Positions 5,152 to 28,922 of a stretch of DNA of 46,331 nucleotides are shown piece by piece. Location: positions 1 to 46,331 of IMG/VR virus record IMGVR_UViG_3300030433_002227; one strand, written 5' to 3'. Source of the DNA: a virus (Duplodnaviria; Caudoviricetes). The notes beneath the pieces were generated by a model, which saw only the letters and a program-made list of their open reading frames with translations, made no database searches and was not told where the DNA came from. The translations under genes were made by a program, and so were the position numbers. Every line of letters begins with the position of its first letter. The first letter of the stretch is position 1.

Positions 5152-5643
5152 ATGAATATATTTCATTTAGATAAAGACCCCATAGAATCAGCACGTTTTC
5201 ATTGTGATAAACACGTTTGCAAAATGATTGTTGAAACTGCACAGATGCTTTGCACAGCACATCGAATTGTTGACCCACAATGGGCAGAAGATATGAAACT
5301 GATGAAAGCAGGATTTCGAAACCACCCAATGACAATATGGGTGAGAACATCTCAAGAAAATTACAGATGGGCATTTCGTTTGTTTCAAGGATTACTTGAT
5401 GAATATGAACATCGTTATGGTAGACTTCATAAATGTATTGAACATGAGATGGGTTTATTATCACCACCACCTATACCAGATATAGGTTTTACAGAAGTTC
5501 CTCTTTGTATGCCAAATCATTGTAAGAATGTTTTGAGTCATGTGAGGTCTTACAGAGAATACTACCGCAAAGAAAAACGATACTTCGCCAAGTGGACTAA
5601 AAGAGATGTTCCTTACTGGTTTGATGATCCTGAGTTAGTCTAA
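5152..5643 (+). CDS. Pyrimidine-dimer DNA glycosylase (T4 DenV-like family)
   Basis: MNIFHLD..P...A..HCDKHVCKMIVETAQML, NHP..IW, SYREYY motifs. Confidence 0.8.
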   Translation: MNIFHLDKDPIESARFHCDKHVCKMIVETAQMLCTAHRIVDPQWAEDMKLMKAGFRNHPMTIWVRTSQENYRWAFRLFQGLLDEYEHRYGRLHKCIEHEMGLLSPPPIPDIGFTEVPLCMPNHCKNVLSHVRSYREYYRKEKRYFAKWTKRDVPYWFDDPELV

Positions 5644-6420
5644 TAATTCATCTTCTGGTGATACATACAAAGTAACACAACGGCAGTTTATGACATTGGC
5701 GACCCCACCTTTGGGGTCTCCTGTGTATGACATACGATAATCAAACCCCTTATATGGAACAATAAAATCTTCATCAAGTGGAACTTCTGTGCCATTCATA
5801 GCCCTGTGATGCGCCCTTGTTCTATCATCATTAGCACTGACCCATCGTTTGACTTGGTTTGGTATATTGAGACTAGCATTAACTTCATGATTAGCAAAAG
5901 ATGATGCACTGTGTGTTTCTGTTCTTGCGATAGTTGCAGAGCGATACCTGCTGAATGTTCCTGTCATGCTTTCAAATATATTTCTTGCTGTGACTGCAAC
6001 ACCAAGCCCATCTAGTTCTGATTGCCTTATTATTCGTGTTATGATTGCAAGCGTTGTTTCACTGATGGCGGTAATATGCCTTGCCCCTTGTTGTATCAAA
6101 AATAATTTTATTAATCTATCAAACAACGCCTCTTGTTTTCTTGCTCTAAGGATACGTTGACCAAACTCTTCAATAATTGCTCTGTAATTTGGTTCTAAGA
6201 TATTTGATAACTTTGGTTGTATATCTACACCAACTTTAATTAATCTTCCTGCTTCTTGATATTCTCTCCTTGCTTGGTCACCTACTTCTGCAAAAAAGGT
6301 GTTCATCTGTAATCTTATTTTTCTCTCATAAGATATTCGTAATCTATTTTGTTCAATGAATTCTTTTCTTGCAGATATGCGGTATCCGTTCTGCTTTAAT
6401 GCAAGATTTGATTGCATCAA
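5635..6420 (-). CDS. Minor head protein (Mu gpF / SPP1 gp7 family)
   Basis: IARTETH, KRW...DDRTR..H, INCRC motifs; follows the portal. Confidence 0.9.
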   Translation of the reverse strand: MMQSNLALKQNGYRISARKEFIEQNRLRISYERKIRLQMNTFFAEVGDQARREYQEAGRLIKVGVDIQPKLSNILEPNYRAIIEEFGQRILRARKQEALFDRLIKLFLIQQGARHITAISETTLAIITRIIRQSELDGLGVAVTARNIFESMTGTFSRYRSATIARTETHSASSFANHEVNASLNIPNQVKRWVSANDDRTRAHHRAMNGTEVPLDEDFIVPYKGFDYRMSYTGDPKGGVANVINCRCVTLYVSPEDELLD

Positions 6421-8813
6421 CTTTTTGACCTAAGAGGATGACCTTTTGGTAACAAATCTAAATCAAATTTTCCTGATCTGAATCTTCCTCTACGCACCGC
6501 ATATAAAAAAGCATTTACTCTTGCAATCGCCCATTGATCAGGACCCATAACATTTCTTCTCACTGATTCTGGATTTGTTCTGTATGCACCCACACCTCTA
6601 CGAAATACCGCTTCAAGCATCCTTTGTGTGACACGTTTACCTTTTTTATCACCATGCTTTTCATTGTGTTCTTTTACTTTATTAGCGATAGTCTTTTTAG
6701 TTCGTGCTGATATTGGTGCTTTTTCTTCGTAGGTGACAGGCTGTTCTTGCAAGTATTGTTCTATACTTTTCTCCTTATCTCTTTCTTTATCTAATTGAAC
6801 AACTTTTCGTCTTGCCCAAGACTGCCCTGCATCACCGCCCCATAACAACCAAGCTATTTTTCCTGCACTTGGATATCCATCTTCTCCTTGGCGAAAACCT
6901 TCCGCACGCTTGTCAACTTCATGTCGTGAGAAAAAACTGTGCATTCTCCGAACAACTGATGGAGACAATCTTTCACGAGCAACGAGTTGTCTAGCTCTAA
7001 GTGCGCCAACTCTAGTGCCTCCTCTACCGAACTCTTGTCGCATTTCCAATCCACGTTCTGCCTCCTGCGCCATCTCTCTTGTTGGTGTCGTATCTATATC
7101 ACTTTCTGCTTTATCTCCATCATCTAAAAACTGCTCATCATCTTCCTTTTTGCCTGATACCCTGAGATAAATGGCATGACTAGAACAAGGCATATAGTAG
7201 TTTCCATCTGGACCTTTTACTGTGTGAGTGCCATCACAACCAAGATTTCTTGCTCTTCTTGCCGCTTCTGGTTGCGAATCAAACACATCTCTTCCTTGAC
7301 CAAAACGTGGGTCTTGTGTGACCCTCAATTCTGGGTCTGCGGTGTGATATTTCTTGGCTGTAAGTTCCTGACCTGTCAATCTCTCATAATCTGCGTGAGA
7401 GGCGCATGGCATAAATATCGTACCATCATCGGTATCATGAGTATGAAAACCAAAACACCCTATTTCTTCTGCTCTATCTTCAGCCTCTTCTTGAGTGCTA
7501 AAAACATCTTTTGAAATTTCTCTTTTAATACCGTAAGCATCTTCTGCATCCTTTTCTGCTTCTTCACCCTCTGAGGGTGCAACTTCTGTTGAACCAAGAG
7601 GGAAGAGATTAGCCGCGATAAAAACATCATCACCTCCTGTGATAGGCTCTAAACCTAGCCTTTCTCTAGCCTCATTTCTTGATATAATACCTTCTCTCAC
7701 TGCTTGAACCACATTTTCATAAGTTCTTCGTCTGCGTTCCGTCATGGCAGGTATTGATTCAAAATCATACGCCAGTGATATATCATCACCGAACATTGGA
7801 GCAAGCCATTCATTGAAATCTGATTCAACCCTTCTTGCTAATGGGATAATTGTTTCTTCATAAAGTGCTAATCGTGCCTCTTGTACGTTTGCATAAGTTT
7901 GGCTGTCTGGTATTCCTATTAATTGAGATGGTACACCAAAACATAAAGCAATATCCTTTGCCGCCATGTGTTTCTGTTGTAGAAAATCCATATCCTTGGG
8001 TGATAATCCCATCTCACGCCAATCAAAATCACCTTCTAACAGTAATGGTCTCCCTGCATTTTTTGGTCCTTGAAACTTCATACGCAAATCATCTTGCAAC
8101 TGTTGGCGTTGACCATCTGTGAGTTGCATTGCCATACCTCTGTCATTTTGAGGTTTAAAAACGATTGCACCTGACGGTCTTGCTCCATTGTCTAATAAAG
8201 CCACATTGTGTTTGTTCACAGCATTATGATTATCAATATCAACAGATGCCGCCTTTATTGGTGACATTCCATAAAAATCGTCTAACGGATTATACATCTT
8301 AATGTGTTTCACTTCTGATGCACCTGTAACAGAATCAGCATCATAAGTTTTTACTACCTTACCATTTATAATGTATTCAAAGCCCTCTGGATTAGAAGTT
8401 TTTCCTGTTTTTATTCTAACCCTATCTGGACGCAATAGATAAAGTTCTCTTGGAACACCTGCAACTTCTGATACTTGTGCGTAAGAGTTTCCAGATATCA
8501 ATAGAAAAGAATATAAAGATTGAAAATATTCAACACCTGCTTGCATGGGATTAGGTTTATTAATTAAAGAAATAATGGGATGTTGATCAAGTTCCATTTC
8601 TCCTTGAAATGCTTTGAATGGAATAGATGCCGCTCCATTTGCTATTTCGTTTACACATCGATACACTATGGCATTTTGTGAGTACCCTTCTTCTGCATAG
8701 TTCTCATAATTATCCCTGCGACTATAAGAATACCCTGTTGTATTTAATACAACTTGCGGTGCTTCTTTTGTTTCAATTTTTGTTGTTCTGCGTAAAAAAT
8801 CAAATAAACCCAT
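6417..8813 (-). CDS. HK97-family portal protein with a C-terminal multi-domain extension of about 370 aa
   Basis: AIVYRCV, YGMSP, NGARPSG, IALCFGVP motifs; start at 8813 by overlap with the terL stop. Confidence 0.93.
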   Translation of the reverse strand: MGLFDFLRRTTKIETKEAPQVVLNTTGYSYSRRDNYENYAEEGYSQNAIVYRCVNEIANGAASIPFKAFQGEMELDQHPIISLINKPNPMQAGVEYFQSLYSFLLISGNSYAQVSEVAGVPRELYLLRPDRVRIKTGKTSNPEGFEYIINGKVVKTYDADSVTGASEVKHIKMYNPLDDFYGMSPIKAASVDIDNHNAVNKHNVALLDNGARPSGAIVFKPQNDRGMAMQLTDGQRQQLQDDLRMKFQGPKNAGRPLLLEGDFDWREMGLSPKDMDFLQQKHMAAKDIALCFGVPSQLIGIPDSQTYANVQEARLALYEETIIPLARRVESDFNEWLAPMFGDDISLAYDFESIPAMTERRRRTYENVVQAVREGIISRNEARERLGLEPITGGDDVFIAANLFPLGSTEVAPSEGEEAEKDAEDAYGIKREISKDVFSTQEEAEDRAEEIGCFGFHTHDTDDGTIFMPCASHADYERLTGQELTAKKYHTADPELRVTQDPRFGQGRDVFDSQPEAARRARNLGCDGTHTVKGPDGNYYMPCSSHAIYLRVSGKKEDDEQFLDDGDKAESDIDTTPTREMAQEAERGLEMRQEFGRGGTRVGALRARQLVARERLSPSVVRRMHSFFSRHEVDKRAEGFRQGEDGYPSAGKIAWLLWGGDAGQSWARRKVVQLDKERDKEKSIEQYLQEQPVTYEEKAPISARTKKTIANKVKEHNEKHGDKKGKRVTQRMLEAVFRRGVGAYRTNPESVRRNVMGPDQWAIARVNAFLYAVRRGRFRSGKFDLDLLPKGHPLRSKS

Positions 8814-10126
8814 CAGGTGATTCTCCAATACGCTGTCCCACTGGTCGAGCTTAGTTCTGTTAACGCCCACACAAGGGCATCCATTCTATCAGGTGACTTA
8901 TTGCCACCCACATATGTTGTCATCTGTTCTTCAAGAACATCAAAAGTTTTCAAGTGTAAAACCTTTTTCTGCTCATATAATGCCGCAATAGGTTCAGCCC
9001 TCACAAGTTTTCCTCTTGCCGCATGAACAGGTGTATATGGCACATCAGTATCTATTGTTCTTAACAAACGCTCAACCAAATCACCACCATTGTTTACCTC
9101 TGCAACAATTCTATCCGCTTGATGCTGATAATACAAGTCTATTGCTAATCTTCCCCAAGCATCTGGACTCATCTTACCAGATTTATCTTCAATTACATAG
9201 TATCTTCCATCAACTCCTCTCCCTGCCACTATGATTCCTGTTTCATCAGATTCAACATTACTTGTCACAGCAGGGTCAAGGGCTATGACTATTCTTTGCA
9301 TTTCTGGTATTTTTGATTGTAATATTCTACAATCATCAATCATTTTGTAAGTCCAAAGCGCACCTTCAGAATCATTCAATATTTCTGCAAAAAGTTCTTG
9401 CCTTCCTAGTCTTGTGTTCTCATATTTCTCTCTCAATTGTTGGATGGCGGCAGGAGCAAGGTTATCTTCATTCTCAAATGTTGATCCTCTTGTTATTACG
9501 ATATTTGTTCTTTTGAGTAGATTTCTAATTAATGGAGTTGGTTTTGGTGTAGTTGTAATAACACATTGAGGATTTTGCCCCAAACGTAAACCGAACATTA
9601 ATTGATCAAAAGTATCTGGATATTGCCAAGCCGCAAGCTCATCACACCATGCCCTATGAAATTGTGGACCTCTTAATCTATCTGGCTCTGTTGCACTAAA
9701 ACCCATAATTTTTGAGCCATTGAAAAGATTTATTTCAGATGCCGTAGCATTATAGCCTCTACCTCTACCGTTTAATAAACATTCTGGTGGCAAAAATTTT
9801 AGTATGCCAGACACTCCCCCAAAGGCAACACGCCTTATATCACCAAACGTTGGAGTTACTACTGCAACTTGAACATCAGGATTCTTTAAGGCGTAAAGAA
9901 TAGTATCCATAGCACCTGTCCTTGTCTTGCCCCAACCTCGTCCTGCAAGAATAAGCCAAATACTATAATCACCATATTTTTTTGTCGATGGCGTTAATTG
10001 ACTAGCTCTAGCTTGTTTCTTCCACTCATTGTAGAGTATGCTCGTATGTTGATGACTTTTCTTCGGCAAGCCTGTCAAGTTCTTCAAGAACCTCTCGGAA
10101 CGCCTCTGGGTTAATAAGGTCTCCAC
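8813..10126 (-). CDS. terL: Terminase large subunit (exact start uncertain)
   Basis: Walker A GRGWGKT, LRGPQF, Walker B WCDE, TTTP, nuclease DPA and SPDRMDALVW. Confidence 0.96.
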   Translation of the reverse strand: METLLTQRRSERFLKNLTGLPKKSHQHTSILYNEWKKQARASQLTPSTKKYGDYSIWLILAGRGWGKTRTGAMDTILYALKNPDVQVAVVTPTFGDIRRVAFGGVSGILKFLPPECLLNGRGRGYNATASEINLFNGSKIMGFSATEPDRLRGPQFHRAWCDELAAWQYPDTFDQLMFGLRLGQNPQCVITTTPKPTPLIRNLLKRTNIVITRGSTFENEDNLAPAAIQQLREKYENTRLGRQELFAEILNDSEGALWTYKMIDDCRILQSKIPEMQRIVIALDPAVTSNVESDETGIIVAGRGVDGRYYVIEDKSGKMSPDAWGRLAIDLYYQHQADRIVAEVNNGGDLVERLLRTIDTDVPYTPVHAARGKLVRAEPIAALYEQKKVLHLKTFDVLEEQMTTYVGGNKSPDRMDALVWALTELSSTSGTAYWRIT

Positions 10127-10583
10127 TTACTTTGCTTATCTCCTGCGCTTGTCCTAATGCTAGTTTTCCAATCTTTTGTGCGTTCAAAGCAACATGAGAC
10201 AATTCTCTCAAGTCATTTACAGGAATACCATTTGATTCTGGATTTTCCTGCTCTTGATCAAAGCTCCTTTGCATACGCCTTGCCACACTTCTTATCAAGC
10301 CTTGTGCAATAAGCAGAGTTCTATCATCTAACTTGTTTGATTCTTCTACCAAGTTTTTTATTCGGTCTGCATCTATTTGCGCTTGTATCTCTGATTGTAT
10401 TTGGTTTTTTTGTTGTTGCCAATTTTCTTTATCTTGCAACCTATACAATGTAGCCCTTGAAACATTATGTTTCTTTACAAGGCTATCAATGCTTGGATAA
10501 ACTCTTTTTTCACCTTCCATGAAACCATAAACAAATTCATCACGAATTTTTATTTTTACTTCATCTTTTATTTTTTCTGCCAT
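10026..10583 (-). CDS. terS: Terminase small subunit (probable)
   Basis: N-terminal HTH; immediately upstream of and overlapping terL. Confidence 0.75.
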   Translation of the reverse strand: MAEKIKDEVKIKIRDEFVYGFMEGEKRVYPSIDSLVKKHNVSRATLYRLQDKENWQQQKNQIQSEIQAQIDADRIKNLVEESNKLDDRTLLIAQGLIRSVARRMQRSFDQEQENPESNGIPVNDLRELSHVALNAQKIGKLALGQAQEISKVSGDLINPEAFREVLEELDRLAEEKSSTYEHTLQ

Positions 10584-10605: not shown

Positions 10606-11307
10606 TCAGTTATTCTCAATTGCTTCTTGTTGTTTTTTCAATAATATTTGATGTTTTGTTGTCCATGATTTACTATATTCTGCGTTCTCAAATAATTTAG
10701 AAAATCCTGTAATATGTTTCAACCTTAATAATTCATCTGGTTGCATACCTAGTTCATTGCAAATGTCATTATCTGCCCAACCATTATCCAACATATTGAA
10801 AACCATGTTTGACATACCACCAATTGAATGTTTCCCCCTAGCTCTATTATGTCTTACTGTTGAAGCCATTCTGTCATTCATATCTTTTTGTAAAACTACC
10901 ACAGGCAAGAGACCTTGGTTTCTATCAAAAATTTTTTTATTATTTAAACAAGTAAAATATCTGTGAAATCCATCAATTATAATATATTTATCTTCATTAT
11001 CATCATAAACTGTAACAACTGGTTGAGTATATCCATCATGCAAAATTGATGTTGCAAGTAAACTCATTTCTTGTGATGCCACTGAATTTGGATTATAATC
11101 ATTAGCTTTTACCTTTTTGATATCTACCCACAGTACGTTGTCGATTGGTTGATGTGACATAGGGCTTACTGTTTCAGAAACATATTTTTTTATCTGTTCA
11201 CAAAAATATATTTTTTCTTCAATTGATAGATTTCTTTGTTCTTCATTAATCATGTGACATATTTGAAAGATTGATTCATCAAGCCACTCTGGCATTTTAT
11301 CTTTCAT
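10606..11307 (-). CDS. IbrB-like ParB/sulfiredoxin-fold protein
   Basis: ANDYNPN, DGYTQPVV, IIDGFHRY, ASTVRHNRARGKH, ELGM..DELLRL motifs. Confidence 0.88.
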   Translation of the reverse strand: MKDKMPEWLDESIFQICHMINEEQRNLSIEEKIYFCEQIKKYVSETVSPMSHQPIDNVLWVDIKKVKANDYNPNSVASQEMSLLATSILHDGYTQPVVTVYDDNEDKYIIIDGFHRYFTCLNNKKIFDRNQGLLPVVVLQKDMNDRMASTVRHNRARGKHSIGGMSNMVFNMLDNGWADNDICNELGMQPDELLRLKHITGFSKLFENAEYSKSWTTKHQILLKKQQEAIENN

Positions 11308-11980
11308 TGAAAATCTCCACATTTGATAATATCAAATATTTGCATCTCATCTCCTGCCCATCATCCATTTTTGTTTTCAGTGTTTCATTTAATTGAATTT
11401 CATAATCTTCTTTTACATCTAAAAAAGAAAACCCATATAAATTAATATCAATACCAAGAATTGATTTGAATGTTTTCTTTATCTCACTTGGTTTGTAAAA
11501 CTTTTGAAGCGTTTTCGTATAATTATAATCTTCATGTCCTTTACCACAGTACATAATACAAACAAACTTGGAATGCATAAATGATTTGCAAAACTTTTTT
11601 AATAATTCTATTGATTCTTGTAGTCCAATGTAATTTATTTGACCATATATCATGAGAACTAAATCATTTTTTCTTTTTGGTTCACATGATGTTATATCCG
11701 CGACGGTAAAAAAATGTTTAGGATATTTTTTTCTTGCTCTTTCCACACTTGCCTTAGATATATCAATACCTTGATAATTCAAATGATTAATATTCGCTAG
11801 TGATATAACGTGACCTGTACCGCAACCAATCTCTAACACACTTTGTCTATATTCTTTTAATAATGGTTTTATAATATTGCCAACTATTTTATCCTCAATG
11901 AGATGTATTTGTTTTTGATATTTTGCATCATAAGTATTAGATTCTTTATCATAAATATGTGCAATCATTTGTTTATCCAT
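11297..11980 (-). CDS. Class I SAM-dependent (methyl)transferase
   Basis: Motif I VLEIGCGTG, motif II GIDIS, ADIT. Confidence 0.8.
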   Translation of the reverse strand: MDKQMIAHIYDKESNTYDAKYQKQIHLIEDKIVGNIIKPLLKEYRQSVLEIGCGTGHVISLANINHLNYQGIDISKASVERARKKYPKHFFTVADITSCEPKRKNDLVLMIYGQINYIGLQESIELLKKFCKSFMHSKFVCIMYCGKGHEDYNYTKTLQKFYKPSEIKKTFKSILGIDINLYGFSFLDVKEDYEIQLNETLKTKMDDGQEMRCKYLILSNVEIFNER

Positions 11981-13190
11981 TTTTTCCACCATACTCTAAT
12001 TTCAAATATTGAGGTTTAATTTGTTGCAATGAATATTTGCTACGAACTCTATTATGTAGATTCCCTTTTTTCCAATCTCGATAAACAATAAGGGGAGGTG
12101 ATTGTAAGTAAGAACCTAATTTTGCAAATTCTATATCATTAACTAATATTGATTTTATTTGTCTTTTATACATTTCATTTGGTTTTGCTAACTCATTATA
12201 TAAAACATCCATTTTTTTCCATTCTTTTATAAATATTGCTTTGTGTTTTTCATGTTTTATAAGTTTGTCTGTCAAAAAATCTCTATATTCACGCCAGTCT
12301 TTGAACATGAAAGGCAACTCATTAATTTTTGTAATACCTGTTTCACCAAGGTGTTTCGCTTGATTTATACCCTGCAACCTTTTATTTAGTGATTCCCACG
12401 TTTCACCTTCTAATTCATGTAAGTAAAAAAGACTTTTAACTGCTGATTCATGATGTAAATTTGAAACTCTCATTTCTCTTATTGGTAGACCAAATCGAAA
12501 ATACTCATCATAAATTTTGCAATAATTCCAATTATTTTTATGTATTGCTGTCCATACATCTCCAACACACCAATCATATAATGGATAGAATGTATAATGA
12601 TTATTTTTCTTATCTAATATTCTCCCCCATGTGATATGCTTATAAGTCATTCCACTCGTCAAACCGCCAAATCTTTGTGGGCTTTCTTCTGCCCTCATTC
12701 CTGCTAAAAAACAAGCAGGTTCATCAGGAAAAAATTGCTGTAAGGATTTAACAAAATAAGTGTACCAATAACCTGTCTTTGCTTCTTTTTCTGCGTTCTC
12801 TTTTAAAATGTGATTATCTTTGATGGCTATTGGGTCTTTTTCTCTCATCCAATCAACACCATCCTCCCAAGTTATTAAAAATGGTTTATCTTGAGAAATT
12901 GAATTAGGAAGGAAAATAGGAACTTGTATCCACAATGGGTCTATCTCATCTCGATACATTACATCTTTGACATACTTTATAACTGATTGCCACTCAGCTT
13001 CTTGATCTAAAAAATAAACCTTCAAAGGTAATCTTTTCAGTTTTCTAGCTATTATTAGAGCGAGTTCAAGAGTGACTGTTGAATCTTTGCCGCCTGAGAA
13101 TGATACAACCACATTTGGAAATTCATTGAATATATACTCGATTCGTTTTAATGCCGCCTCATAAACATTTTCATTTATATAAATTTTCAT
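11973..13190 (-). CDS. IbrA-like PAPS-reductase (PP-loop) family protein
   Basis: SFSGGKDS, LDQEAE, GMRAEES..R, YPLYDW...DVW, MRVS motifs. Confidence 0.9.
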   Translation of the reverse strand: MKIYINENVYEAALKRIEYIFNEFPNVVVSFSGGKDSTVTLELALIIARKLKRLPLKVYFLDQEAEWQSVIKYVKDVMYRDEIDPLWIQVPIFLPNSISQDKPFLITWEDGVDWMREKDPIAIKDNHILKENAEKEAKTGYWYTYFVKSLQQFFPDEPACFLAGMRAEESPQRFGGLTSGMTYKHITWGRILDKKNNHYTFYPLYDWCVGDVWTAIHKNNWNYCKIYDEYFRFGLPIREMRVSNLHHESAVKSLFYLHELEGETWESLNKRLQGINQAKHLGETGITKINELPFMFKDWREYRDFLTDKLIKHEKHKAIFIKEWKKMDVLYNELAKPNEMYKRQIKSILVNDIEFAKLGSYLQSPPLIVYRDWKKGNLHNRVRSKYSLQQIKPQYLKLEYGGKNG

Positions 13191-13804
13191 TTTAATCTTG
13201 CTTTTGTTTTTTCCAACCTTTTGAAATTTAACTCATTGCCAAAAAATTTCATTCCTCTGTTCACTGCGGCTTGTGCTGTAAAACCCATTCCACACATTGG
13301 GTCAAGACATATGCCATTTTTATCCACATCTAAATATTCAAAGATGTATTCTACTAAATTTAAATCTTGAAGTTTTGTACATTCTTCCTTGAAAAAATCT
13401 GTCAATGTTATGGTTGAAGTTTTGCTCAAGAAGTGTAAGTCACATGGACGCAAAATTGAACCTGATTTGTAATAGCAAATCGTTGACCCATTGTGTTTGA
13501 ACCCTAACCTTTTAGATATATCAACAATATCTTGATTCCATTGACATCCATATTCAATCACTACTTTATCTTTTGAATATTCGTAAATTAAAGAGAAAAA
13601 ATGTTTGATAAAATCTGTGTATAAAACGTCATTTCTTTCTACATTATTCATTTTTTTATTCATAGTTTGCCAATATCTTAAATTTCCCTGTCCCCAAGGT
13701 GGATCACTATAAATAAAATCAGCTTTTTGATTCATCATTAATTCTTCAATGCCATCCATGATGTTACCATGTTGCACACGATGATTATTAATTTGTGTTA
13801 TCAT
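13187..13804 (-). CDS. Amino (N6-A/N4-C) methyltransferase-fold protein
   Basis: Motif IV YSDPPW precedes motif I LDPMCGMG...GNEL (beta-class order); ATGA-coupled start. Confidence 0.78.
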   Translation of the reverse strand: MITQINNHRVQHGNIMDGIEELMMNQKADFIYSDPPWGQGNLRYWQTMNKKMNNVERNDVLYTDFIKHFFSLIYEYSKDKVVIEYGCQWNQDIVDISKRLGFKHNGSTICYYKSGSILRPCDLHFLSKTSTITLTDFFKEECTKLQDLNLVEYIFEYLDVDKNGICLDPMCGMGFTAQAAVNRGMKFFGNELNFKRLEKTKARLK

Positions 13805-14445
13805 ATTTTTGCTCTGTTTATTAAAATATGCTTGAAACTTGATGTTTGTTTTGATTCCATTGTCCAATATTTAAAATCGCCTAAATAAAAATATTTATAT
13901 ACTTTTCCGTTCCACATCTCATCGACCCCTTTTGATTCAATTAAATCTACTGCTTCAGCAAACTCATCAATGGATTTCCATTCTCTGCTCCTTGTGTACC
14001 AATGAGGAATTGTTGGCATCGTTTTGGCGAAATGCCATTTATTATTTAATAAATTATTACATATCCTCGTTACTTCAATTTCATCAAGGCAAGTAAAACC
14101 ATTTTGTCTATCATAGAATTTATAATGAATATCAAACGGTTCAAATTGGCGTATGCTTTGCCAAATTTTTGTAAGTCCAAAATTAAGACAAGAATAAACA
14201 TCTAGCTGTATTTTTGCAGGTTTTTTCTCATCCCAACTATGTAAGACGATGTGGGATGTTTCAATAGCACAAATACAAGTCATTCCTTTGTTGCCTTCTT
14301 TTTCACAATACACTGCCTTTGGAACTATTAATGGCTTCATATGTAAAGTTTCTATTAAATTTAACATCCATGATTCTATCATTTTTTCGTTGATTGGTGG
14401 TTTATGCACTGATGACATGAGCAATAAATGTTTATGTTCGAGCAT
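13801..14445 (-). CDS. speD: S-adenosylmethionine decarboxylase proenzyme fused to an unknown C-terminal domain
   Basis: HKHL, IETSHIVLHSW (pyruvoyl Ser site) and LDVYSC; extra domain WHFAKTMPTIPHWY...YWTM. Confidence 0.82.
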   Translation of the reverse strand: MLEHKHLLLMSSVHKPPINEKMIESWMLNLIETLHMKPLIVPKAVYCEKEGNKGMTCICAIETSHIVLHSWDEKKPAKIQLDVYSCLNFGLTKIWQSIRQFEPFDIHYKFYDRQNGFTCLDEIEVTRICNNLLNNKWHFAKTMPTIPHWYTRSREWKSIDEFAEAVDLIESKGVDEMWNGKVYKYFYLGDFKYWTMESKQTSSFKHILINRAKI

Positions 14446-14446
14446 T

Positions 14447-15034
14447 TTAATAACCTGCTATGTAAAATTGCTCAGAACAATGTGGACAGATAACCTCAAT
14501 TCCTTCTTGATTTTTACTGTTCATCGCACTGTCAATTTCTCCATGAATTTTACTTTCAGCGGATTCAAAGTCTTTTGAAGAAATTTGAGTTTCAGAGATG
14601 TCAGGAGAAAAATTTGGTGAAAAGTCCATCATAGAAAACTCTTCTTCCATTCCTGTTAATGAGAGGTCAAAAGTACCTTCACTTATTTTTTTTAATTCTG
14701 TATATAATAATGCGTTATCCCAAGAACTGTTCTCCGCTAATTTGTTATCAGCTATAAGATATGCTCTTTTCTTATCTTCTGACCAATTTACAGCTCTTAT
14801 ACATGGAACTTCTTTTATATCAATATTTAAGGCGGCAAGGTATCTTCCATGACCTGCTATTATGACGTTTTCCTCATCAATCAATATTGGAATAGTCCAT
14901 CCCCATTCTTTTATGCTATTTGATATTTGATTTATTTGTGCATCAGAATGTATTTTTGGATTTTGTTCATATACTTTCAAATCTTGTATATTTATGTTTT
15001 CAATTTTTTCTGCGGTAAACTGTATATTTGACAT
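14447..15034 (-). CDS. ParB/Srx N-terminal domain protein with C-terminal CPxC
   Basis: NPKIH...I..SI..WGW..PILID...IIAGHGR, AY.IADNK, ICPHC. Confidence 0.88.
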   Translation of the reverse strand: MSNIQFTAEKIENINIQDLKVYEQNPKIHSDAQINQISNSIKEWGWTIPILIDEENVIIAGHGRYLAALNIDIKEVPCIRAVNWSEDKKRAYLIADNKLAENSSWDNALLYTELKKISEGTFDLSLTGMEEEFSMMDFSPNFSPDISETQISSKDFESAESKIHGEIDSAMNSKNQEGIEVICPHCSEQFYIAGY

Positions 15035-15115
15035 GAATTTCCTCATTTTTTATGAGCTTAACATTTAATTTTATAAAAAAAAAGTTTATTTTTCTTTATT
15101 TTATGTTATTTTGTT

Positions 15116-15176: not shown

Positions 15177-16247
15177 ATGGTTAATTATAATGATTACAAA
15201 CTTGGTTTTGAAATAGAATTTAAAGAAGCGCATCGTGAAAGACTTGTAACACATATGCAAAATTATTTGCAAGGTTCTGGCATACAAATAGAATCAGAAC
15301 ATTACAATCACACAACTAGATCACACTGGAAAATAGTTTATGATGGTACTGTAAGCTGTGGATCATTTGGTGGTGAATTGGTAAGTCCTGTTTTACAAGG
15401 TGGTGTAGGTTTAGAAGAATTAAGAAAAGTTTTGGAAGCACTCAATAGTTTTACCGAAGTCAACATTGGTGAAAACATAAATTATGAGTGTGGTGTTCAT
15501 GTTCATCTAAGTTATGATGGTATGAATGTATCCCATGTAAAAAATATCTATCGTAGGTATGCACACTATGAAGACACTATTGATACATGGTTTCCAAAAT
15601 CTCGCAGGGCGAACTCAAATCGATGGTGCAAAACTATACAGAATAATAGCGTCCTCCAACGCATAGCCAATTATTCTGAATCATTGGTTAGAATGAGTCG
15701 CCTTGTGGGAACTCGCTATGTAAAACTAAATTTACAAAGTTTATCAAGGCATGGCACGATTGAATTTCGTCAACACGCAGGTAGCACAGATTTTGAAAAA
15801 ATTTCTAATTGGGCAAAATTTTGTATGTCTTTTGTTGATATTAGCAAATTCAGAAATACTCAAACAATGAATGTAAATTATAGAAGACAAAATAGAACTA
15901 AATCTTTTGGTGAAGTTAGAGAAATATTTGAGTCTAAAAATTGGTCAGTAAAATATGGTGGCGGTGTTTGGAAATTTCGTGATGAACTTGGACACGTTAG
16001 ACACTCACTAACAAATGATGATATGTTTAATTTTTACATTGCTGATTTTATAAATGATCAAGGTTTAGCAAAAATGAGAGTGCCACAAGTTTTGAATATC
16101 AACTTCATTAATTTTTACAATTCTTGCTTTACAGACAATCAAATAGAAGATGTTTTTGATGGTTGTGAAAATTCAGTAAAAGAATTTTTACAAGCGAGAA
16201 TTGCATATTTTGCACAAAGAGAAAACAGCAACAGAGAGGTAGCATAA
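15177..16247 (+). CDS. Putative amidoligase (COOH-NH2 ligase, Amidoligase_2 family)
   Basis: GFEIEF, W.I..DG, ELVSP, CGVHVH, RY..LN, GTIEFRQHAG motifs. Confidence 0.87.
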   Translation: MVNYNDYKLGFEIEFKEAHRERLVTHMQNYLQGSGIQIESEHYNHTTRSHWKIVYDGTVSCGSFGGELVSPVLQGGVGLEELRKVLEALNSFTEVNIGENINYECGVHVHLSYDGMNVSHVKNIYRRYAHYEDTIDTWFPKSRRANSNRWCKTIQNNSVLQRIANYSESLVRMSRLVGTRYVKLNLQSLSRHGTIEFRQHAGSTDFEKISNWAKFCMSFVDISKFRNTQTMNVNYRRQNRTKSFGEVREIFESKNWSVKYGGGVWKFRDELGHVRHSLTNDDMFNFYIADFINDQGLAKMRVPQVLNINFINFYNSCFTDNQIEDVFDGCENSVKEFLQARIAYFAQRENSNREVA

Positions 16248-16699
16248 TGAAAACGAAATATCTTGCATATGGGAGCAATCTTAATAAAGAACAAATGATG
16301 ATGAGATGTCCTCATGCAGAACCAAAAAACCTAATAATATTACAAAATTTTAGATTAATATTCCGTGGAGTAGCTGATATTATACCTGCTTCTGGATTTG
16401 TAGTTCCTGTAGTTGAATGGTTAATAACAGAACAATGTGAGAAAAGTTTAGATATATATGAAGGTTTTCCGAACTTGTATGACAAAAAATATTTTTGTGA
16501 TAATGATGGAACTTCTTTTATGACTTACACAATGAATGGCAATGGATTTCAAATGCCTCCGTTGAATTACTTAAAAGTCATAGAGCGTGGTTATGATGAT
16601 TTTGGCATCGATAAAACATATATCACTGAAGCATTAGAATTTACAAAGGCTAATCAAGATGGTTTGGGTTACATACCAACTAGATATAAATCAGCATAA
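16247..16699 (+). CDS. Gamma-glutamylcyclotransferase (AIG2-like)
   Basis: YLAYGSNL, F.GVADI, LD.YEG.P..Y motifs. Confidence 0.88.
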   Translation: MKTKYLAYGSNLNKEQMMMRCPHAEPKNLIILQNFRLIFRGVADIIPASGFVVPVVEWLITEQCEKSLDIYEGFPNLYDKKYFCDNDGTSFMTYTMNGNGFQMPPLNYLKVIERGYDDFGIDKTYITEALEFTKANQDGLGYIPTRYKSA

Positions 16700-19653: not shown

Positions 19654-19863
19654 ATGAGTAACTTAAATAATCAATCTTTAAAAGAAAAATTATATGATCA
19701 AGCATATGAAGAACTTAGAGAGGATTTTCAAGCAGGTTTGGAATTTTTGATTGATACATCTTATCATCACAATATTGCGGTAAATTTAGCAGAAGCAAGA
19801 TGGCATGAGATGGATCATGATTTAAGTGGATATAGTTTCATAAATAAAAAAGGAGTTCATTAA
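19654..19863 (+). CDS. Small hypothetical early protein
   Basis: GGAG-A6-ATG RBS. Confidence 0.7.
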   Translation: MSNLNNQSLKEKLYDQAYEELREDFQAGLEFLIDTSYHHNIAVNLAEARWHEMDHDLSGYSFINKKGVH

Positions 19864-21050
19864 TGTTAAAATCACATTTGGATTCAGATATTGTAAAGAA
19901 AAAAGAACAACTAAAACCAGATGCTTTTGTCAATGAGGTGCTTGCAGGTTTGGCACAACCGAAAAGAGGTATTGAGAATTATCTAGGTAAAAACAAAAAA
20001 AGTGAATTTCATCTGCGTAAAGCACAAACCCAAATTGTTCAGAGTACAAAATATTTTCTATCTGATAATTTTGTGCGCCATGCAGTTTGGGGTTCATGGG
20101 TGCAACCGAGTAAAATAGTTCAAGCATTAGAATTTGCCATTCCACCATCCAATAATATGTGGATTGAATGGGATGAAAATTTTCGCAAAGAAGAAATCTT
20201 CAAAGTTTTTCAAAAATATATGGATGGACTTTTTGATAAGGGTGTGGATAAAGATACCTTAAAAATGGGTTATCATATCACTAGAGTATCACATAACCCT
20301 TTTGATGTTCACCCTCATACAAGAAGACCAGATTTTGAAAGCATTGAACGTGGAATAAAAGATTTTGATAGATTTAACTTTCAAGGTTTTGCAAAAGACC
20401 CAGAAGGCAATATATTGATATTACCTATTCAGTTTGATTTGTATAACCACCAGATTGACGAGACAGTTCTTTCTCAACAAAAATATAGAGATGATTTTGT
20501 GAAGTCTGGCTTGGATTTGTGGGGAGATGGTTATCTGCATTATTGGGGGTGCAAGGGACACAACACTGCAAAACTTTCTCGCAGAACGTGTTTGCAAATG
20601 GATAATCTTACATTTCTGACTATGAATTCTGAAATGATTGCTAATGCCCAATCAGATGATAGTGACCTTACAAAACATTTTGGAACAATATTGAGAGGTG
20701 ATCTGAGATTCCTTATTTCAGTATTTACAATTCTTAATTATCCAATTGTTTCACATGAAACGGTTCAACCAAAACAACAGATTGATACAATTCGTTGGGG
20801 TCGCAGAGTTCCAAAAAATGAATATAAAATATATGATGTGGATTTGCCAAAACCAAGAGGTGTTCGTATGTATGAATCCATGTTTACAGGTCATGGAACA
20901 CCAAAGCGTCAACACATCCGCAGGGGTCATCCAAGGCGAATCAAAAAGTTGGATGGCACAATAGAAACAAAATGGATTGAGGAACAGGTGGTTGGCAATC
21001 CAGAATTAGGAACGATAATAAAGGATTACAACCTCAAGGCAAAACTTTAA
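19863..21050 (+). CDS. Hypothetical protein with C-terminal HxRRGHxR motif
   Basis: 395 aa, AGGAG RBS; RQHIRRGHPR...W....VG. Confidence 0.8.
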   Translation: MLKSHLDSDIVKKKEQLKPDAFVNEVLAGLAQPKRGIENYLGKNKKSEFHLRKAQTQIVQSTKYFLSDNFVRHAVWGSWVQPSKIVQALEFAIPPSNNMWIEWDENFRKEEIFKVFQKYMDGLFDKGVDKDTLKMGYHITRVSHNPFDVHPHTRRPDFESIERGIKDFDRFNFQGFAKDPEGNILILPIQFDLYNHQIDETVLSQQKYRDDFVKSGLDLWGDGYLHYWGCKGHNTAKLSRRTCLQMDNLTFLTMNSEMIANAQSDDSDLTKHFGTILRGDLRFLISVFTILNYPIVSHETVQPKQQIDTIRWGRRVPKNEYKIYDVDLPKPRGVRMYESMFTGHGTPKRQHIRRGHPRRIKKLDGTIETKWIEEQVVGNPELGTIIKDYNLKAKL

Positions 21051-28346: not shown

Positions 28347-28922
28347 ATGGCTCTAGCAATACCCCCAGAGATAAGAAGTAGTGACATGGGTGTAACTTCT
28401 TGTTTAGATTTAAATCAAGAGGAAACAAAAAAAATCATTGCCTTACATAAAGATGATTCGACTTTCCACCGCAAGGGAAAAGTTCAAAATGAAGATTCAA
28501 ATGTGATTGATTTCAAAAAAAGAGAGGTGGATGTATTTGTCATCCATGAAAAACATGAATGGGTTGATGAACTGTTGATTCTTGGTGCGAAAAATGCAAA
28601 TGAGCTTTTTCAGTTCAATCTCACTGGTATTCTAGAAAGACCACAACTCCTGAGATATTCTGCTCCATCAATCGGTTATGGGTGGCACTTAGACATAGGC
28701 ACAGGAGATCATAGCACTCGCAAGATAAGTATCAGCGTTTGCCTTAATAGTGATTACGATGGTGGAGAACTTGCTTTTTTCATGACAGGTGAACAAACTA
28801 TCAAGCCAGATGCAGGAACAGGGATAGCATTTCCATCATTTATGCCCCATAGGGTGACACCTGTAACAAAAGGTGAAAGATGGGCATTAGTATGTTGGAT
28901 TACAGGTGAACCGTTTCGATAG
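28347..28922 (+). CDS. 2OG-Fe(II) dioxygenase (P4Hc/PKHD-like)
   Basis: WHLD, RKIS, YDGGEL, FPS...HRV.PVT.G.R. Confidence 0.9.
   Translation: MALAIPPEIRSSDMGVTSCLDLNQEETKKIIALHKDDSTFHRKGKVQNEDSNVIDFKKREVDVFVIHEKHEWVDELLILGAKNANELFQFNLTGILERPQLLRYSAPSIGYGWHLDIGTGDHSTRKISISVCLNSDYDGGELAFFMTGEQTIKPDAGTGIAFPSFMPHRVTPVTKGERWALVCWITGEPFR

Follow-up and report, generated by a model that had tools for sequence, protein, structure and literature searches.

Gene content and setting of the block

The window analyzed here is a stretch of 46,331 nucleotides (nt), comprising positions 1 to 46,331 of the IMG/VR virus record IMGVR_UViG_3300030433_002227. It represents a 46-kb marine tailed-phage genome, in which head, tail, lysis, and replication genes are all found and the first 30 bases repeat near the end, as in a circular assembly. 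This work concerns a block of six genes adjoining the putative terminase small subunit gene (terS) and the terminase large subunit gene (terL). The block encodes two ParB proteins (one of the IbrB type), an IbrA-type PP-loop enzyme, a SpeD-fold decarboxylase fused to a domain here called Cdom, and two S-adenosylmethionine (SAM)-fold proteins that resemble methyltransferases (MTases) (Table 1). Comparisons with related loci show a cassette built on ParB, IbrA, and IbrB whose cargo can be exchanged. The cassette likely marks the phage DNA, and the presence of unrelated amine-making enzymes in this cassette in other phages suggests that the mark carries an amine.

The block consists of six minus-strand open reading frames (ORFs) from 15046 down to 10606, with neighbors 1–26 nt apart or overlapping. 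The junctions are, in order, a 1-nt gap, two successive ATGA overlaps, a 20-nt overlap, an 11–26-nt overlap, and 22 nt to the putative terS. An earlier sequence-only reading of this DNA described six genes lying head to tail and running into terS-terL. The ORFs bear out this arrangement, and Pfam, PHROG, and NCBIfam agree with its domain calls (ParB-N/CPxC, SpeD fusion, DPPW MTase, IbrA, class I MTase, and IbrB). The ParB_N gene starts at 15046; position 15034, the start given earlier, is a second ATG in frame. Because the same six-gene order recurs in three distinct relatives (L009, L011, and L012), this order is not due to chance. For the putative terS, nothing naming it was found in Pfam, PHROG, or NCBIfam.

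The GC content of the block is 30.4%, compared with 38.5% in the head region, 38.0% in the tail region, and 33.9% in the early region, and the block is indeed more AT-rich than the structural genes, as had been noticed. However, this AT richness is no sign of recent import, because the third-position GC of the block is ordinary (0.20–0.27, not below the 0.22–0.25 of the portal, primase, or tail genes). Recent import is ruled out by this composition together with the conserved clade described below. A promoter scan found 7 sites against 3.3 ± 2.0 expected and singled out no promoter for the block. The block lies on a single contig of sequencing run X1, which may be the source run, with zero differences, and near-identical pieces span 30 of 30 bins in X4 from the same study. 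The block is found in marine metagenomes, and a gene transfer agent-type holin and tail chaperone suggest an alphaproteobacterial host.

Table 1. Features of the six-gene block and the adjoining terminase genes in the window.
Feature	Position	Strand	Support
ParB-N protein with C-terminal CPxC, opens the slot; likely loader or activator	14447..15046	-	PF02195 E 2e-6, phrog_620 E 3e-50
SpeD-fold pyruvoyl decarboxylase domain (aa 1-120), likely arginine decarboxylase	14086..14445	-	PF02675 (AdoMet_dc) E 5e-10; whole fusion gene 13801-14445
Cdom, ~90-aa domain without family name, fused to decarboxylase; motifs FAKTMP-IPH, YKYW, INRA	13801..14070	-	
Small beta-class amino-methyltransferase-like protein (DPPW ... 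DPxCGxG), optional cargo	13187..13804	-	
IbrA-type PP-loop (SGGKDS) enzyme, core, predicted adenylyltransferase	11973..13190	-	PAPS_reduct+DUF3440, phrog_2302 E 3e-84
Class I SAM-dependent methyltransferase (EIGCGTG), optional cargo	11297..11992	-	Methyltransf_25 E 1e-10
IbrB-type ParB protein, core	10606..11322	-	phrog_2159 E 2e-73
Putative terminase small subunit (terS), 22 nt downstream of IbrB	10026..10583	-	Position and conservation ahead of terL in relatives
Terminase large subunit (terL)	8813..10126	-	Terminase_6N E 1e-20, 6C E 6e-16

Conservation of the cassette and gene exchange ahead of terS

The IbrA/IbrB pair (phrog_2302 and phrog_2159) is already a known annotation. The same two families are adjacent and near the terminase both in the window and in known phages, namely as the 'PAPS reductase' and ParB of Flavobacterium phages 1H and FCL-2 and of Pipefishvirus mycobacteriophages. 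In comparison, the window adds a second ParB, the decarboxylase-Cdom fusion, and two MTases. In E. coli, IbrA/IbrB are island genes (YbdN/YbdM in K-12), and the pair reportedly activates prophage eib genes. IbrA/IbrB-type genes are present in 223 of 50,697 GenBank phage records, and the number of IbrA-bearing stretches in the viral collection is estimated at one to two thousand (from ~4,200 pattern matches, with 277 of 603 confirmed).

Searches with alignments of the fusion yielded 15 distinct cassette-type relatives and 68 other homologue loci, and IbrA searches of viral contigs and genomes, together with a terL search, yielded 173 IbrA loci in 135 clusters at 90%. Alignment queries were needed, as a single-sequence IbrA search of viral contigs returned no locus. 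Duplicates were merged before counts were made (L008; L086-L088, L180; L089, L094, L210; L095; L092; L206). Among the 87 IbrA loci with enough flank, the neighbors include IbrB (87), CPxC ParB (68), Cdom (55), the DPPW family (41), one GT-A group (18), one GNAT group (14), and a polyamine-pathway gene (11); the count for MTI (10) is an undercount based on one query. Instead of the fixed six-gene system proposed earlier, these loci have a three-gene core and variable cargo.

For the decarboxylase, the neighborhood search showed only part of the expected co-conservation with the IbrAB/MTase block: IbrA follows the decarboxylase in all 11 relatives whose contig extends that far, but the MTases are missing in some. 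In L016, the cassette lies ahead of an unrelated terminase and portal. IbrA, IbrB, ParB, or Cdom were found at none of the 68 other homologue loci (29 of which are at least 8 kb), and no terminase-like match was found near these free homologues with four terminase query groups. Taken together, the lack of cassette genes at other loci, the MTase losses, and L016 indicate that the decarboxylase is tied to IbrA, not to the MTases and not strictly to a terminase operon. In a quick tree, decarboxylases of the window type fall into a single clade (16 rows, SH-aLRT 99). This clade, which includes L016, corresponds to a single clade of IbrA (10 of 10 rows, support 99; eight of these were found via the decarboxylase search). 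The description of the block as coupled to the terminase was overstated: IbrB leads straight to terS in six of nine relatives, but an amidoligase/GGCT gene pair on the opposite strand lies between them in the other three.

The genes ahead of terS were compared among 80 loci with terL 64–86% identical to that of the window, 45 of which show the interval between ParB and terL. This slot holds IbrAB in 23 of the 45 and other genes in 22. Ten of these 22 were scanned gene by gene against Pfam, and all 10 carry DNA-modifying families; one more gave a single protein without match, and 11 were outside the scan. The cargo of the non-IbrAB slots includes Tet_JBP, ADDT, P-loop kinase 3 (a nucleotide kinase), TAGT, N6/N4 MTase, and MT-A70. 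A ParB gene stands at the start of the slot in both the IbrAB-type and the TET/JBP-type relatives, and such ParB proteins are described as activating T-dioxygenases and as needed for thymine oxidation in vivo (PMC13229309). These ParB-dependent T-dioxygenase (5mYOX/TET-JBP) loci have the same ParB-opened slot before terS and belong to the same phage family. The window differs in having no dioxygenase, kinase, or ADDT, and a PP-loop enzyme stands in their place.

The slot exchange is the best evidence that the target of the cassette is probably DNA, and the earlier proposal that the block is a DNA modification cassette appears likely, since the slot is common to TET/JBP, ADDT, TAGT, and MTase genes in close relatives. 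For ParB-terminase modification loci in general, Iyer et al. 2013 (NAR) is the likely earlier source. Alternatively, IbrA and IbrB may act on a target other than DNA, such that a nucleotide, RNA, protein, or host defense signal receives the amine and methyl groups. The nearest solved folds of IbrA (FAD synthase and CysD) act on small molecules, Cdom is weakly BECR/RelE-like, and IbrA/IbrB have been described as prophage transcription regulators (PMC8813620). We consider this alternative unlikely, given that the slot otherwise holds DNA-modifying families, that two ParB proteins flank IbrA, that the DPPW protein belongs by type with the DNA amino-MTases, and that in Dnd, Ssp, Tdp, and BREX-4 it is proteins with a PAPS reductase domain that modify the backbone of DNA (PMC12914056).

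Several related loci have other gene sets. Between ParB and terS, L193, L212, and L254 have Tet_JBP, a kinase, and ADDT with GATase, DAO-like, or MTase tailoring genes, and these sets are candidate new thymine hypermodifications in close relatives of the window. A second cassette type, in which IbrA/IbrB are joined to an SNF2-like ATPase, is present in L002, L004, L166-L171, and L281. In addition, a GT-A-like domain is in one frame with IbrA (644 aa) in L134:2854-4788.

Identity and substrate of the decarboxylase domain

The model of residues 1–120 has a class 1b SpeD fold (1vr7 match, Z 14.0, rmsd 2.2, 110 residues aligned). In an alignment to 1tlu, S64, H69, and C86 align with the processing/catalytic residues S63, H68, and C83 of T. 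maritima, and all three are invariant in the decarboxylase alignment. The earlier reading had named the gene an S-adenosylmethionine decarboxylase (AdoMetDC), but the domain groups instead with an assayed arginine decarboxylase, the SpeDA of phage HTVC201P (AXH71538; PMC9992855, PMC10407285), to which it is 49% identical over 115 aa. Identity to two assayed AdoMetDCs is 31% over 58 aa and 24% over 91 aa. In a careful tree of 28 rows (inferred under LG+G4, a simpler model), the domain falls in a 22-row clade with HTVC201P (support 99/97), apart from the assayed AdoMetDCs, including those of S-PM2 and phiN3. Among the 13 GenBank phage matches of the decarboxylase, 12 are pelagiphage-type genes. 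The HTVC201P gene is stand-alone in a replication module, whereas that of the window is fused to Cdom in an IbrAB cassette and its activity is predicted from sequence.

The motifs are consistent with this placement. The E-T-S-H and H-x-W-D motifs of the HTVC201P enzyme are common to all 16 cassette members, and a proline after H-x-W, which marks true AdoMetDCs (PMC10407285), is missing in all 16, as in HTVC201P. The position of this proline was taken from 1tlu, 2iii, S-PM2, and the sequences in supplement Fig. S5 of PMC10407285. The window gene scores 26 bits against TIGR03330 (AdoMetDC), for which the cut-off is 75.65. Four residues mark ornithine decarboxylases (PMC10407285); by eye against Fig. 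S5, the window type has only Thr of these SpeDC residues (Gln, Thr, Phe, and Tyr), and L107 and L108 have three of the four. The HTVC201P enzyme is reported to decarboxylate arginine, not ornithine or lysine, without complementing speD, and similar phage proteins to act on ornithine (PMC9992855). Because clade and motifs match the assayed arginine decarboxylase, the AdoMetDC reading is not supported. The window decarboxylase very probably acts on arginine or ornithine, and its likely product is agmatine, formed from arginine, rather than decarboxylated SAM.

The two SAM-fold proteins

The profile of the DPPW protein matches the DpnA-type adenine MTase 5hfj (E 9e-11), and its motif IV precedes motif I, as in beta-class N6/N4 DNA methyltransferases. 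Its score of 25.6 bits lies just below the curated N6/N4 MTase cut-off of 26.7. Among 34 family members, 25 have [DNS]PP[YFW] and motif IV is decayed in nine. The protein is likely a small beta-class amino-MTase, with N6-methyladenine or N4-methylcytosine (m6A/m4C) as a putative product. Of 13 assessable relatives, 10 have the DPPW gene, which L001, L010, and L018 lack. The class I MTase, which has an ordinary class I motif, is present in 11 of 12 assessable relatives; it lies outside the cassette in L178, L179, and L181 and is fused to Cdom in other cassettes. In L018/L092, the decarboxylase is kept and a GT-A-like gene replaces both MTases. Both SAM-fold genes are missing in L134 too.

These patterns bear on the earlier proposal that a true AdoMetDC supplies decarboxylated SAM, from which a SAM-fold protein puts an aminopropyl group on DNA. 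Spermidine-synthase-type aminopropyltransferases have a GGG[DE]G loop; neither SAM-fold protein has a Spermine_synth match, and the loop motif occurs in none of the 34 sequences of one family or the 21 of the other. The reported absence of a spermidine synthase holds, with zero matches among the 61 ORFs of the window scanned against Pfam. The processing residues of the decarboxylase are intact, SAM-fold genes adjoin it in most relatives, AdoMetDC-like genes are present in the cassettes of L129, L134, and L140, and phiN3 shows that specificity can switch. However, with clade and motifs of an arginine decarboxylase and with both SAM-fold genes missing in L018/L092 and L134, aminopropyl transfer is very unlikely.

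IbrA and its predicted chemistry

The IbrA model (pLDDT 90) is most similar to FAD synthase (Z 16.1, rmsd 3.5, 179 residues aligned) and CysD (Z 15.3), followed by APS/PAPS reductases (Z 14.0–14.8) and TilS (Z 10.4–12.0). SGGKDS is invariant in 79 IbrA sequences. Because its nearest folds adenylate phosphate or sulfate, IbrA is predicted to be an adenylyltransferase. No cysteine is invariant in these sequences, the best being kept in 45 of the 79, which makes sulfur chemistry unlikely. ECG[LI]H is the C-terminal catalytic cysteine motif of CysH and RxGCxxC is a motif of DndC; both are found in 0 of 79 IbrA sequences. An adenylyltransferase without sulfur-handling residues would stop at the adenylate or need another nucleophile.

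IbrA could also be a sulfurtransferase like DndC, SspD, or TdpC, which would produce phosphorothioate (PT), or it could serve sulfur metabolism as a PAPS reductase. Phage 'PAPS reductase' genes of the IbrA/IbrB type are frequently interpreted as part of the sulfur cycle (PMC8879888). IbrA belongs to the same structural branch and has weak PADLOC matches to DndC, BrxP, and SspD (E 2e-7 to 1e-3), which are confined to residues 11–77. Its scores are 23 bits against the DndC model TIGR03183 (cut-off 290) and 24 bits against the PAPS reductase model TIGR00434 (cut-off 165). DndC has Fe-S cysteines and a cysteine dyad (PMC10853773), and the DndC-type sulfur chemistry suggested in the earlier reading fails on the missing cysteines. 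Neither the scanned cassette cargo nor the 61 ORFs of the window scanned against Pfam include a desulfurase or a DndD/SspC-type ATPase. We therefore regard a sulfur-based function as highly improbable.

The likeness of the cassette to Dnd, Ssp, BREX-4, and Tdp (PMC12914056, PMC10853773) lies in a PAPS-reductase-branch enzyme and a ParB-superfamily partner (DndB). In contrast to these systems, the window cassette lacks the conserved cysteines, desulfurase, and ABC ATPase, and has amine enzymes as neighbors. In Tdp, the single gene tdpC is reported to be enough for PT (PMC12914056), and the title of An et al. 2025 on this system names an adenylated intermediate. No TdpC entry appeared among the structural matches of IbrA.

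Cdom and the recurrence of amine-forming enzymes

Cdom, of ~90 residues, occurs either as a separate protein or as a fusion partner of domains of the class I MTase, SET, or decarboxylase kind. The earlier reading noted it only as part of the SpeD fusion. Among the window-type relatives, it is fused to the decarboxylase in 11 of 15. Cdom has no tblastn match in GenBank phages, no sequence match in PDB, and no feature match in the Atlas; a stand-alone member has no Pfam match. The Atlas matches of Cdom are weakly BECR/RelE-like, with a template modeling (TM) score of 0.5–0.6, below the acceptance bar. Cdom is a recurrent, hitherto unnamed cassette component that may serve as an adaptor. SET-Cdom fusions occur in both orders, each next to an amine enzyme (L107:2647-3378, L108:5294-6004, and L266:2338-3354). 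In L014:6135-7007, a class I MTase has an apparently decayed N-terminal Cdom and adjoins an intact decarboxylase-Cdom fusion.

Three kinds of SpeD fold are present in the cassettes: the window type, an ornithine-decarboxylase-like type beside SET-Cdom (L107 and L108), and a proline-keeping type (L129, L134, and L140) that scores 71–72 bits against the TIGR03330 cut-off of 75.7. These do not form one clade (approximately unbiased [AU] test, p 8e-5; LG+G4, 28 rows), and a single ancient SpeD recruitment is ruled out by this test. Other cassettes have PvlArgDC (L150 and L154; E 3e-33), phosphatidylserine-decarboxylase-like genes (L277 and L298; E 2e-40 and 6e-36), or carboxyspermidine-dehydrogenase-like genes (L111, L121, and L266; a weak NCBIfam match, 64 bits against 800). 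The amine enzymes are on separate IbrA lineages, and the polyamine label requires eight changes on the IbrA tree, one of which comes from a truncated contig. A polyamine-pathway gene lies within 2.5 kb in 13 of 135 IbrA clusters, compared with 0 of 45 IbrA-free terL loci (451 kb). SET domains, which are associated with amine methylation, are present in four distinct cassettes, and all four have an amine enzyme. New here is the range of enzymes found in such cassettes on separate IbrA lineages, namely SpeD proteins of three subfamilies, pyruvoyl decarboxylases of two unrelated folds, and an enzyme resembling carboxyspermidine dehydrogenase.

The cassette at L268:4998-10067, whose record bears the title of a Nanobdellati archaeon, is followed by a PvlArgDC gene immediately behind terL. 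The cassettes of L277:297-6760 and L298:1666-6772, both in spirochaete records, have the phosphatidylserine-decarboxylase-like gene, and L277 adds SET, GT8, and UDP-sugar dehydrogenase; they could write a phosphoethanolamine or phosphocholine-like mark.

The recurrence may also be explained if the cassette modifies DNA and the decarboxylase is a separate late metabolic gene that raises polyamines for DNA condensation or packaging, with the slot as merely a convenient place. Homologues are stand-alone metabolic genes in pelagiphages, where that of HTVC201P lies between exonuclease and ribonucleotide reductase genes, and pelagiphage decarboxylases have been suggested to raise putrescine (PMC9992855). 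Furthermore, the recruited enzymes enter polyamine synthesis at different points, one PvlArgDC lies after terL, and only 11 of 87 cassettes have an amine enzyme. However, the decarboxylase is fused to Cdom, which elsewhere is fused to MTase and SET cargo, and it has been kept while IbrA diverged to 55% and the cassette passed to a different type of phage. No amine enzyme was found in the 22 non-IbrAB slots or the 45 IbrA-free loci, although these numbers are small, and the phosphatidylserine-decarboxylase-like genes of L277 and L298 yield no polyamine. Bulk polyamine supply is the main rival explanation, somewhat less probable than the reading preferred below.

Proposed mechanism and comparison with amine-based systems

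The reading that we prefer, with a probability of about 0.4, is that ParB loads IbrA, IbrA adenylates DNA, AMP is replaced by an amine that the decarboxylase supplies or trims, and the MTases tailor the product or act alone. The cassette would modify DNA after replication. By analogy with the ParB-dependent T-dioxygenases in the same slot, the two ParB proteins may bring IbrA to DNA. As its fold suggests, IbrA would then consume ATP in adenylating DNA, at a phosphate or, with lower probability, at the carbonyl of a base. Displacement of AMP by an amine would yield a phosphoramidate or an agmatidine-like base. The amine may be agmatine from the decarboxylase, or arginine that is trimmed after attachment, with the fused Cdom holding the decarboxylase near. 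The two MTases would be optional, methylating the adduct or adding ordinary m6A/m4C.

A similar order of steps is found in tRNA modification by TilS (lysidine) and TiaS (agmatidine), in which ATP activates a tRNA position and lysine or agmatine then attacks. TilS is a PP-loop fold match to IbrA, well below the FAD synthase/CysD branch, and its target is tRNA; TiaS is not a PP-loop enzyme. In phages, the polyamine-modified thymines putT of PhiW-14 and alpha-dapT of SH-Ab 15599 carry a diamine that is added to DNA post replication, with decarboxylase/acetyltransferase tailoring (PMC13458397). These systems use 5-hydroxymethyluracil (5hmU), a kinase, a Pplase2 transferase, and host amines (PMC13458397). 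No 5hmU source, kinase, or Pplase2/ADDT transferase was found among the 61 ORFs of the window scanned against Pfam, with match-less ORFs remaining. The use of host amines by putT and dapT indicates that cassettes without their own supplier could still work.

Several observations weigh against the proposed mechanism. Because most cassettes lack an amine enzyme (it is present in only 11 of 87), the host would have to supply the amine in these cases, unless the core has a different function. Minimal ParB-IbrA-IbrB units are found in L178, L179, and L181, and the cultured Pipefishvirus Obutu has only ParB, two small genes, IbrA, IbrB, and terminase. Within the terL family, polyamine genes occur in 3 of 23 IbrAB slots compared with 0 of 22 others, which is not significant (one-sided p ~0.12). 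The in-versus-out test gave 13 to 1 (p 0.0015), but with two queries picked post hoc and with relatives counted; by family it is about 5 to 1, which is not significant. Cdom is missing in 4 of the 15 window-type relatives, and PvlArgDC lies behind terL, outside the cassette, in L268. The recruited enzymes make different products, and the L129/L134/L140 type looks like a true AdoMetDC. Regarding the substrate, HTVC201P is the single assayed member within the window's clade in the tree, and the phiN3 enzyme is an AdoMetDC that lacks the proline and falls in the ornithine clade, such that substrate calls from sequence can fail. The literature searched, which covered few subscription papers, reports no activity for any IbrA/IbrB cassette and no link of IbrA/IbrB to a decarboxylase.

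If the proposed mechanism is true, DNA can be marked with polyamines by a further, new route, possibly at the backbone, and some phage 'SpeD' genes have a purpose beyond bulk metabolism. A broader and rather unlikely extension is that IbrA/IbrB cassettes write a new class of DNA mark, in which the backbone is adenylated and an amine replaces AMP to form a natural phosphoramidate (agmatinyl here, +112.11 Da). Within this extension, and no more probable than it, the pyruvoyl decarboxylases, SET and other methyltransferases, GNATs, and glycosyltransferases would be interchangeable suppliers and tailors. Such a mark would be cationic and would join phosphorothioate as a second type of modification that occurs naturally on the DNA backbone. 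If these readings are false, two annotations (AdoMetDC and PAPS reductase) are still corrected and an unnamed cassette domain is defined.

Other features of the window

An Amidoligase_2 and GGCT-like gene pair (15177-16699, plus strand) is divergent from the cassette in the window, and such a pair is placed between IbrB and terS in L001, L012, L091, L096, L098, and L183. The portal gene (6417-8870, minus strand) encodes 817 aa, compared with ~450–730 aa in relatives, and the protein has a long C-terminal extension with two DUF3721 repeats and a weak DUF5824 match. On the plus strand, a 395-aa ORF (19863-21050) has no match in Pfam, PHROG, or NCBIfam. Finally, a pyrimidine-dimer glycosylase-like gene (5152-5643, plus strand) lies among the head genes on the opposite strand, and a 2OG-Fe(II) oxygenase gene (28347-28922, plus strand) lies ahead of the lysis genes.

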